Assembly: GCF_017348835.2 (NCBI RefSeq) | Contig: NZ_CP071375.1 | Strand: one strand, 5' to 3' | Length of the DNA: 64,000 nucleotides | Source: Escherichia coli | GTDB lineage: Bacteria; Pseudomonadota; Gammaproteobacteria; Enterobacterales; Enterobacteriaceae | In this document: one piece after another, positions 10,901 through 13,900 of the stretch | Position numbering within the stretch: the first letter of the stretch is position 1 | Layout: the number at the start of each line of letters is the position of its first letter | Position numbers: made by a program

Positions 10901-13900
10901 TTTAGGAAAAGCAAGGCGGGAAGTCGGGAGATAAGTCATTGATAAAGTGGCGGAGAGAGGGGGATTTGAACCCCCGGTAGAGTTGCCCCTACTCCGGTTT
11001 TCGAGACCGATGATACCGAATCGCAAAATCAAAAGGTTATAAATTTTTCTTGGAATAAATGTCTTAAAAACATACACGAAAAATCAATAAACTACGTTGA
11101 ATTCAATAAGAATATTCCAAGCCTTCTTTGAGTTATTTTTGACCAGTTTGCTGTTTTTCTTTCTCATAAAATATTTCCTGATATCCCTTAACATTACTGA
11201 TACTCAAGTAGTGAATTTATGAGCAATCCTAATCCATGCATGACGTGTGGTGCCTGTTGTGCATTTTTCGCGTCTCTTTTTACTGGGCTGAAGCAGATGA
11301 TGCTGGCGAAAGGTTTATCAGAAAACCGTAGCGCCTTCTTGCATACGACGTGTCCGCAGTTTTATATAATCCCGACCAGAAACCTCTTATAAAAAGTCGA
11401 TACACAAATATCATGGATAATCACCACCTTCTGACGAAGAATATCTGATGAAATTAATCGCCCCTCTCCTGAGACCATTGCGCTGGGGTAAATTTGTAAC
11501 TACGTGTGTACAGTGAGGTGTCGTATAGCACGCCGTCAGGAAATGCAAGGTGCCCCCGATATCCCCGACTACAAGTCAGCAAACAAAGTGATTGGCTGGC
11601 AATCCACATCACAGAAATGGACAATGCTACTTTATAATCGAGCTTGGTAGCCACCTTGATGGTCACTTTTAAAAAAAGCGTTTACACAAAATGATAAGCA
11701 GGCTCACAGGACCTCCCTCTAATCATCCACATTGTAAAGCTCCTTTGTTGTAAGTAAGATCCGGCACCCTAATAATATCAAAAGGATCAAAATCATCACT
11801 GCATCCTTCCACAAGACATTTCATTGCTCGTAGATCACCATATAGCTCTGAAGAGTGATGCGGACATAACAGACCATAAACTTTACATTTAGAATCTTCT
11901 TTACCTTGTCTACTTTCCTCAATTTTTACTTTCAATGAATACAGAAAAAAAAGCTCCCTGATATAACCATCCCTGTCATCTATCGTCATCCCCTCCCTCA
12001 GTGCTCCGACAACCTCATCAGTATTTTCATTTCTCACCTCAAATACACTATTTCTCTTATCCATCAGCCCACTTACAAAAGCACTTAGCTCTTGATAAAT
12101 TTCCTCAAGCTCATTACTATTTCTGGCATTTGAGTATATAGAGATCATAGCATCAAGTTTATCTTGTAATTCAGGAGTAAGAAAATGATTATGATTAAGT
12201 TCACTTACTGATTCCGGAGTCGAAGGGTTACCTCTTCCTGATACATACATCCATGAATAAAGATTTGCTGAAGAGCCACTTGTTGGTAACATATCAAAAC
12301 CCCCTTAACAAATAAATATTATAAAAAATATGGCTGTATAAAAATATTATACCTTACTTAATACCACACTAATAAGATCTTGCTTTCCTCCATGATAAGA
12401 TTCCATGATTTCATGTCTACTCCATGAAATATCAGAAACATTATAAGATGATATATCTATTGGATTAAATTCATTTCTCACACGATCATATAAAACATTT
12501 GTTTCTGTTGTATCAACAAAAAGAATTCCTTTTTTTCCAGTCTCTCAAACATATCATAAATAGCATGCTCAGCCTGTGCTGGCAAGGACGAAATATTTAA
12601 AAGCGATTCTCCATTTATTTTATCCATTCTAATACCAATAATATCTCTATTATCGCCATATATTTTCTCTGCACTCCCGGCACCATAATACTGGTTGAAA
12701 CAACGAACTTCGCTTGTCACCTCTTCATGGCTTTGAGATATAGTAAACATCTTCAACACTTTTGTTGTATTTTCCATATCTTCATACACGACAGCATTAC
12801 CACCTTTACCAATAACGTTACCTAGCACGGGTGATTTGTTGTTGCTAAGCCTCAGCAACGCTGACTGAGTATAATCCGCTGGCGGTAACTCCGGCTGCGC
12901 ATAATCCACTGGAGGTAAATCAGGTCTGTTCGAACGAACAGATCCTCTTTCTATAGTCGTGCTCACTGTCGATGAATTCAGCATAGCCTCAATTTTTCTG
13001 GTGATCTCTCCCTTAGGCCATCCCAGTCTATACAGCATATTAGTAAAACATCCACTATGACTCTCTCTTGTCACGCAAAACCTATTATCACTTAAAACAA
13101 CGCGATATGTTCTGTTGCTAACCTTTACTTGCGCCCCATTATCAGAGTGAGCGGCAGCATCCCTTACAGAGGGATAAAACACGATTATCAGGCAAAGTCA
13201 GGTTTCTGGTTAAAGAATTCCATGAACACCCCAAATTTACAGAAGATGGTGATAGCATACATTTCAACCTTCAAAATGAATCAATCTTTACTTTCTTAAC
13301 AAACATCACCATGACATGACAACAAAAAACTGGAAATTAACTATTGTTTTTGAGTATCTGGCAACTCATTCATCCTTCCAGCATCCCGTCAGACGAACGT
13401 TTACGAACTATAAATCAGGTATTACTGGCCCTCGAAATCTGGAGATACTGACGTATCAACACGGTTCAGTAACACCCGATACCTCTTCCAGACTGTCAAC
13501 AACGATGTCTCTTCATCCGTTGCGATCTGCAGCATCCTGAATATGAATGCCATAGCTTACGGCATCACGAAAAGTTTATGAGCGGCTCAAAGCATCAAGT
13601 ATAGTATTACTAATCATATCGACCGTATGCTGATCAATGAGTCTGCCACGACTGTCATGGACGGCGCGTATTACACTTTCGTATACGTTGCTTAAATCTG
13701 CTGCGGAAAGTGGTATTCGCTTACCTATATCCAAAACGTAATCCGCATAGGCATTTTCAGCACGATTAGGAGCAATGGGAGCAGAGTATCCTGCCGGGGC
13801 GGAAAAGTTGAAGTTGGACTGTAATGAGGGAATTTTCATGTTTATATCTAATACCCTGCAAATCATTTATTACAACAAAATAAACTATATCAAATTCATT

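Follow-up and report, generated by a model that had tools for sequence, protein, structure and literature searches.

A probable relic of the prophage cargo gene ykgJ at the attachment-site end of a serU prophage in Escherichia coli

Introduction

Beside a fragment of a tRNA gene in an Escherichia coli genome (contig NZ_CP071375.1, assembly GCF_017348835.2) stands a short plus-strand open reading frame whose product opens with a tight cluster of cysteines, which raises the question whether the locus is a working gene, the broken end of one, or a chance arrangement of codons. A sequence-only reading of the 64,000-nucleotide stretch analysed here, which we call the window, had taken the frame for the N-terminus of a YkgJ-type cysteine-cluster protein cut short, and for a probable remnant of earlier cargo at a prophage end. 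Following up this reading by computational comparison, we conclude that the locus is a dead relic of the prophage cargo gene ykgJ, cut and frameshifted and no longer a working gene, an interpretation to which we assign a probability of about 0.88.

YkgJ of E. coli (b0288) belongs to PF03692, the CxxCxxCC family described as a 'putative zinc- or iron-chelating domain' (UPF0153), and a transposon screen has tied it to biofilm and filamentation phenotypes (PMC8743551). In the parts of their paper drawn on here, Nakamura, Ogura, Gotoh and Hayashi (2021, PLoS Pathog, PMC8112680) report that effector-carrying prophages hold attachment sites for other phages, and they describe ykgJ/ecpE-derived sequence at the ends of such prophages, including a 96-bp secondary attachment site named attB-in-PP_2; the full 309 bases are given as present in Sp15 (VT1-Sakai). 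The same parts trace the ykgJ/ecpE-like sequence of prophages to the chromosome of E. coli or of a close relative, from which it was possibly taken up several times.

Results

The surroundings of the frame are set by two copies of the end of a tRNA-Ser gene and by the phage sequence that follows the left one:

10948..11009, minus strand: displaced 3' fragment of the tRNA-Ser gene serU (62 bases), the left attachment-site repeat, aligning to the 3' part of intact serU with 2 mismatches
11010..11132, no strand assigned: attachment-site arm of serU-integrating phages, 84-89% identical to phages ev099, mEp332, PhiR70_1 and SerU-LTIIb
61929..62018, minus strand: intact serU, rebuilt by the phage-supplied 3' end, at the right prophage end next to the integrase; the only intact copy found by ARAGORN

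Because the serU 3' fragment lies at 10948-11009 and intact serU at 61929-62018, the window holds a lambdoid prophage of roughly 51 kb within serU, situated between yodB and mtfA/asnT. Thousands of E. coli genomes match the fragment in their serU region at 100% identity, and in the O145 strain RM9872, at a locus 100% identical to this one, the rebuilt tRNA has a frameshifted tyrosine integrase beside it. The arm is also common to other serU prophage ends (our locus L016 among them). Past it the serU prophages differ, with tail-fibre genes following directly in AVS0196, espJ-tccP in O157:H7 and, in the present case, a ykgJ stub, an invertase remnant and an nleF-nleH block; such variation after the serU arm is typical of a region of exchangeable cargo. 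For the 78 bases immediately left of the stub (11133-11210), strain D1 gave the sole match. The open reading frame and the stub within it are located as follows:

11219..11392, plus strand: 57-codon ORF with its stop, a chimera of YkgJ codons 1-17 in frame, codons 18-30 from out-of-frame ykgJ, and a remainder of spacer-derived sequence and antisense invertase remnant
11211..11316, plus strand: ykgJ stub, covering -8 to about +99 of the prophage allele and lacking a single base after 11269 and another near 11308

A gap of 209 bases separates the ORF from the serU 3' fragment on its left, in keeping with the earlier placement of the ORF next to an attachment-site fragment. Translation of 11219-11389 returned exactly the peptide given in the sequence-only reading, although its count of 56 codons has to be raised to 57 with the initial Met; the TAA stop occupies 11390-11392. 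Residues C7, C10, C13 and C14 form an in-frame CxxCxxCC motif of the YkgJ-family type. In size alone the ORF is unremarkable, with 67 ORFs of at least 30 aa overlapping 8000-15000 in the ORF listing, and it is because of its ykgJ homology, not its length, that it stands out from chance. The exact 57-aa peptide has been deposited a single time, as 'hypothetical protein EC930624_2372' of E. coli 93.0624.

At the DNA level, blastn aligned 11211-11308 to chromosomal ykgJ (strain PK12) with 92.9% identity over 99 columns and E ~5e-35, corresponding to ykgJ -8 to +90, and aligned the stub to the ykgJ of the cM8a prophage with 92.5% identity over 107 columns, reaching 11316, the E value to the prophage copy being 2e-38. 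The ykgJ homology ends at about +99, so that some 27% of the gene is present in the window. The claim of an N-terminus cut short is thus upheld by homology which runs from -8 to about +99 and then stops, and the RefSeq/PGAP annotation of the identical RM9872 sequence agrees: 'YkgJ family cysteine cluster protein; frameshifted; incomplete; missing C-terminus'. Within the stub the run TTTTTCCGCG after 11269 is one C short, and because of this 1-base deletion the frame shifts after codon 17 and in-frame YkgJ is limited to codons 1-17; downstream, the ykgJ homology carries on in the next frame, listed there as a 31-aa ORF. With the frameshift corrected, the first 30 residues are identical to those of an intact 109-aa prophage YkgJ (WP_071528431.1) at 30 of 30 positions, Pro4 included, and match chromosomal YkgJ at 29 of 30 (E 5e-21). 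Homology to the YkgJ family is therefore found in both peptide and DNA, while an uninterrupted frame is precluded by the deletion after codon 17 and the truncation at about +99.

Compared with YkgJ (b0288), the stub retains 17 in-frame codons and about 27% of the gene, and these are of the prophage allele and not of the chromosomal one. Residue 4 is Pro in the stub and in intact prophage YkgJ, whereas it is Leu in chromosomal YkgJ; after +90 the stub reads GAAAGGTTT like the prophage copies, whereas chromosomal ykgJ reads GTACCATT; and the match to the prophage copy is 8 bases longer than the chromosomal match, extending to 11316 with the second 1-base deletion. Because of Pro4, the GAAAGGTTT marker and the longer match, the stub appears to descend from a prophage-borne cargo allele and not from the resident chromosomal ykgJ.

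The full-length YkgJ is a clear member of PF03692 (44.6 bits against a cut-off of 23, residues 6-98). Pfam scans of the 57-aa ORF, of the 37-aa alternative frame and of the corrected 30-aa stub gave no match, none of the three holding the complete domain, because the fragment is too short. A profile search, which had been put forward as the test able to refute a family relationship, is consequently uninformative on this fragment, and it is blastn and the corrected-peptide alignment that reveal the similarity.

YkgJ is read in frame in only 17 of the 57 codons, the other 40 being out-of-frame, displaced-spacer or antisense sequence. Since 17 YkgJ codons are followed by 13 out-of-frame ykgJ codons, then by spacer-derived sequence and then by antisense invertase sequence, the 57-codon frame is an accident. 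The site is an ordinary pseudogene, already annotated, and not a working gene.

To the right of the stub, three further features account for the end of the ORF and for what follows it:

11307..11367, plus strand: sequence from the spacer that precedes ykgJ (about -88 to -30, tail of the dinI module), now displaced and meeting the stub at a CGAAAG(G)TT microhomology
11362..11505, minus strand: 3' remnant of a DNA invertase (Gin/Pin-type), matching the invertase gene of phage vB_EcoM-689R6 with 77% identity (145 bases, E 5e-22)
11723..12292, minus strand: nleF, which opens the block of type III effector cargo (RM9872 annotation, ORF list)

The spacer piece shares 47 of 61 positions with the spacer in the mlrA prophage of OkiPb01686 and 28 of 32 with that of B1_2, with local scores of 42-46 as compared with a maximum of 28 in 300 shuffles, and the upstream region of ykgJ in Salmonella prophages matches it with 81.8% identity over 44 bases. 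The order at the joint is head-to-tail, ykgJ +99 being joined to -88; a tandem duplication, or a deletion between two successive copies (PPompW has two), would leave the same joint. An alternative alignment by MAFFT, which placed 11317-11400 within the gene at ykgJ codons 35-60, was dropped, the match to the upstream spacer being far stronger. The peptide of the invertase remnant gave a weak match to HTH_7 (E 0.11, below threshold), and its frame contains stop codons farther up. In place of the remaining ykgJ, the effector block comprises nleF, a split nleH, an nleC remnant and nleB2 cut by an IS.

Comparison with related prophages revealed ykgJ copies in several stages of decay. An intact 109-aa ykgJ (330 bp), the WP_071528431.1 copy aligned above, is carried by strain Res13-Lact-PEA12-26 (O157:H16) in a potB prophage, flanked on one side by the attachment site and on the other by oppositely oriented tail-fibre genes; the intact protein has 256 members in its 90% cluster, and the exact sequence occurs on 209 contigs. 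Salmonella prophages likewise carry an intact 109-aa ykgJ beside tail-fibre genes in the same position. These genes are complete, whereas the copy in the window is cut at about +99 and frameshifted. Full-length but frameshifted ykgJ is found in 55989, next to tRNA-Ser, and in cM8a, after dinI at mlrA. In VT1-Sakai the gene is cut at +114, with homology to the chromosome from -193 to +114 and the cysteine motif already mutated; in the yecE prophage of O103:H2 it is cut at +66; the decay series also includes a copy cut at +39; PPompW holds two degraded copies; and in B1_2 and OkiPb01686 the similarity stops at about -37 to -30, before any of ykgJ itself, and nleG genes follow. Among phage records, dozens of Stx1- and Stx2-converting phages proved to carry the ykgJ 5' segment (87% identity). 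In these prophages ykgJ occupies the position of a moron, between tail-fibre genes and attachment site in a stretch the phage does not require, with cargo that varies among related prophages. That the stub is a remnant of earlier cargo at the prophage end, as had been suspected, is supported by these intact or frameshifted genes at the same position. This comparison brought up no intact ykgJ in a serU prophage, and the ancestral state is therefore drawn from prophages at other integration sites. A breakpoint at +90 in common with copy b of PPompW was considered and rejected, as that copy runs on weakly to about +114.

A close counterpart of the stub is H0002 of VT1-Sakai (Sp15), annotated as 'similar to E. 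coli K12 YkgJ', which is likewise an attachment-proximal ykgJ remnant in an EHEC lambdoid prophage, 87% identical to the stub, and which directly follows a dinI under LexA control beside the yehV/mlrA attachment site. In VT1-Sakai, dinI and the complete spacer are preserved and ykgJ reaches +114, whereas the window is without dinI and runs from -8 to about +99 of ykgJ.

The published 309-base figure could be reproduced as a 309-column alignment between VT1-Sakai and the chromosome (83.5% identity), in which -193 to +114 fits blocks of 29, 96 and 184. Compared with the chromosome, the PPompW copy adjoining attB-in-PP_1 shows 78% identity from -164 to -69 and only 64% from -9 to +87. From such block-wise identity we infer that the 96-bp core would correspond to ykgJ -164 to -69, comprising the 3' end of dinI and the spacer. 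A blastn search of the 64-kb window with the region from five prophages returned the stub and the short spacer piece only, the latter sharing at most about 20 bases with the edge of the site; neither dinI nor the attachment core was found elsewhere in the window, from which the 96-bp core of attB-in-PP_2 would, on this mapping, be absent. The stub would then be part of the 184-bp flank. Equating the stub itself with the 96-bp attB-in-PP_2, on the ground of their similar lengths (98 and 96 bases), was dropped after the 29+96+184 blocks had been mapped onto the chromosome and two PPompW copies.

On the chromosome of E. coli, the ecpE-ykgJ spacer contains a decayed dinI directly upstream of ykgJ, of which two frames recover DinI residues 28-55 and 64-81, and the DNA homology between the chromosome and the phage dinI-ykgJ unit extends from -254 to +314. 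In other enterobacteria a YkgJ of 134 aa is encoded elsewhere, in Salmonella between ompW and yciC.

Strain D1, isolated from a dog, carries a serU prophage which is about 5% diverged from that of the window and in which the stub is bounded left and right by the same junctions. The D1 stub is without the frameshift, has a Cys13Tyr change in the motif and encodes a 37-aa ORF with a different C-terminus, and the divergence between window and D1 is about equal inside the stub and in the non-coding flanks (~5%). Because the D1 ORF differs and the stub diverges about as much as its flanks, no protein is conserved at the stub locus. Among 5426 complete genomes, 109 carry at least 80% of an 821-bp query (window 10900-11720) that includes the stub. 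The adjoining 11309-11722 is matched by 110 genomes, including O145:H28, O103:H2, O45:H2 and some dog and pig isolates; since 103 of these 110 are near-identical (at least 99% identity), the conservation of this segment is uninformative on selection.

Discussion

We propose a model in which the stub is what remains of a cargo gene displaced by type III effector genes. Lambdoid prophages of E. coli and Salmonella carry a 109-aa ykgJ paralogue as cargo in the non-essential region between tail-fibre genes and attachment site, in many cases directly following a phage dinI. In the serU prophage lineage this gene would have been cut at about +99, with the joint at the CGAAAG(G)TT microhomology, past which there now follow a piece of its own upstream spacer, the DNA-invertase remnant and then nleF, nleH, nleC' and nleB2. 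A later 1-base deletion would have opened the accidental 57-codon frame, ended by the first stop in unrelated sequence. Direct observations are the limits of the homology, the frameshift, the copies at the same position in other prophages, whether intact or partly decayed, and the failure of D1 to share the reading frame; it is the order of the events that we infer, and the stub presumably makes no functional product. It counts against a dead relic that the window copy has kept its CxxCxxCC motif whole.

The strain's own chromosomal ykgJ could have supplied the stub, through imprecise excision or through recombination with the ecpE-ykgJ locus, and both the 92.9% identity to chromosomal ykgJ and the chromosomal derivation of prophage ykgJ/ecpE-like sequence in the cited parts of PMC8112680 would fit such an origin. 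We nevertheless consider it unlikely, since Pro4 and GAAAGGTTT match the prophage alleles and not Leu4 and GTACCATT, the homology to the prophage copy is 8 bases longer, the serU site and ykgJ lie far apart on the chromosome, and the same stub with the same junctions is present in the 5%-diverged D1 prophage. A role as a working secondary attachment site, through which other phages would enter the serU prophage at attB-in-PP_2, is suggested by the ykgJ/ecpE-derived sequence beside exchangeable effector loci at a prophage end, as described for that site (cited parts of PMC8112680), with nleF, nleH, nleC' and nleB2 immediately to the right of the stub. This role is very doubtful, however, because the core, placed by our mapping at ykgJ -164 to -69, was not found in the window. 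Among the prophages listed in the paper there is no serU prophage.

It is hardly credible that the 57-codon ORF specifies a small, functional peptide that binds metal, or that its transcript acts as a regulatory RNA, even though the ATG and the CxxCxxCC motif are retained and one deposit names a hypothetical protein: the consensus scan found no sigma-70-like promoter upstream of the stub, the D1 orthologue yields a different 37-aa product that lacks one cysteine of the motif, out-of-frame or antisense remnants account for 40 of the 57 codons, and the Pfam domain requires residues 6-98. To the view that the ORF and its cysteine pattern arose by chance and are unrelated to the family, which would account for the missing Pfam match of the fragment and draws on the abundance of ORFs of such length by chance, we concede next to no probability in view of blastn E values of ~5e-35 to ykgJ and 2e-38 to the prophage copy and of corrected-peptide identities of 30/30 and 29/30.

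As a dead relic of prophage cargo, the stub is already known, being an annotated pseudogene of a class, the ykgJ-derived relics at EHEC/EPEC prophage ends, that has been documented. As a correctly annotated pseudogene, the locus is in itself of little importance. It offers a clean lineage marker for the serU effector prophage, and it adds one more step to a decay series in which older cargo beside the attachment site is overwritten by incoming effector cassettes.

A wider reading, which we hold to be tentative and on balance improbable, would see in the stub and the spacer piece the scar of an ancestral dinI-ykgJ module, the module that supplies attB-in-PP_2, at the serU prophage, with the joint recording the loss of an effector cassette or of an inner prophage, and would take the core-genome ecpE-ykgJ locus for a fossil prophage end. 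If true, the fossil-prophage-end interpretation would reverse the direction of transfer, from chromosome to phage, that is assumed in the literature. Between the stub and chromosomal ykgJ there is also a run of 38 bases of perfect identity, over which rare homologous exchanges would, as a matter of speculation, be possible in principle.

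Segments flanking the ykgJ remnant and the downstream boundary

The truncated 5' remnant of ykgJ at the end of the serU prophage is bordered by the following segments (ykgJ positions are relative to its ATG):

11133-11210: AT-rich segment of 78 bases between the serU-phage arm and the remnant
11307-11367: part of the spacer that normally precedes ykgJ (-88 to -30), here downstream of the remnant
11362-11505, minus strand: 3' remnant of a DNA invertase gene (Gin/Pin-type), between the ykgJ remnant and nleF

For the AT-rich segment, the sole match found was its orthologue in the serU prophage of dog strain D1, about 5% diverged. 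A CGAAAG(G)TT microhomology marks the head-to-tail joint between the remnant and the spacer piece, an arrangement which could have arisen by tandem duplication or by deletion between two copies. In three independent prophages, the tail of the dinI module stops no more than a few bases from ykgJ -37 to -30, at about 3850 in L010 and about 4370 in L015 (prophage ends of strains B1_2 and OkiPb01686) and at about 11361-11367 in the window. The cargo that follows differs among them, being nleG7, nleG or the invertase remnant. The shared end probably marks the edge of a module and need not be a hot spot of recombination.

The chromosomal locus and YkgJ size classes

On the chromosome of E. coli PK12, the spacer 5' of the core-genome ykgJ (L002, 2215-2372) is a decayed dinI, and DinI residues 28-55 and 64-81 were recovered from it in two frames. 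Homology between the phage dinI-ykgJ unit and this chromosomal locus extends from -254 to +314. The ecpE-ykgJ region of the chromosome may therefore represent the fossil end of a prophage, rather than the donor of the phage ykgJ copies.

Across the loci compared (L018-L025), YkgJ occurs in two sizes. The protein of 109 aa is encoded on the E. coli chromosome, in prophages of E. coli and Salmonella and, in Citrobacter, close to the art operon, and that of 134 aa is typical of other Enterobacterales, its gene lying between ompW and yciC in Salmonella. In E. coli, ompW itself serves as a prophage integration site.

Effector block and phage-borne tRNA genes

Further features of the prophage are:

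12347-13182 and 13576-13866, minus strand: nleH, which a frameshift divides into two ORFs (also in O145 strain RM9872), and nleC, a fragment only
about 14404-15465: IS903B copy (IS5 family), inserted in nleB2
46624-46873, minus strand: three tRNA genes (Arg-tct, Arg-tcg, Met/Ile-cat)

With nleH split and nleC reduced to a fragment, the effector block is itself in decay. The IS903B insertion in nleB2 is shared with only 1 of 5426 complete E. coli genomes, so that at this position the window strain is unlike RM9872. The two also differ in their phage-borne tRNA genes, RM9872 carrying only two at the corresponding place compared with three in the window.
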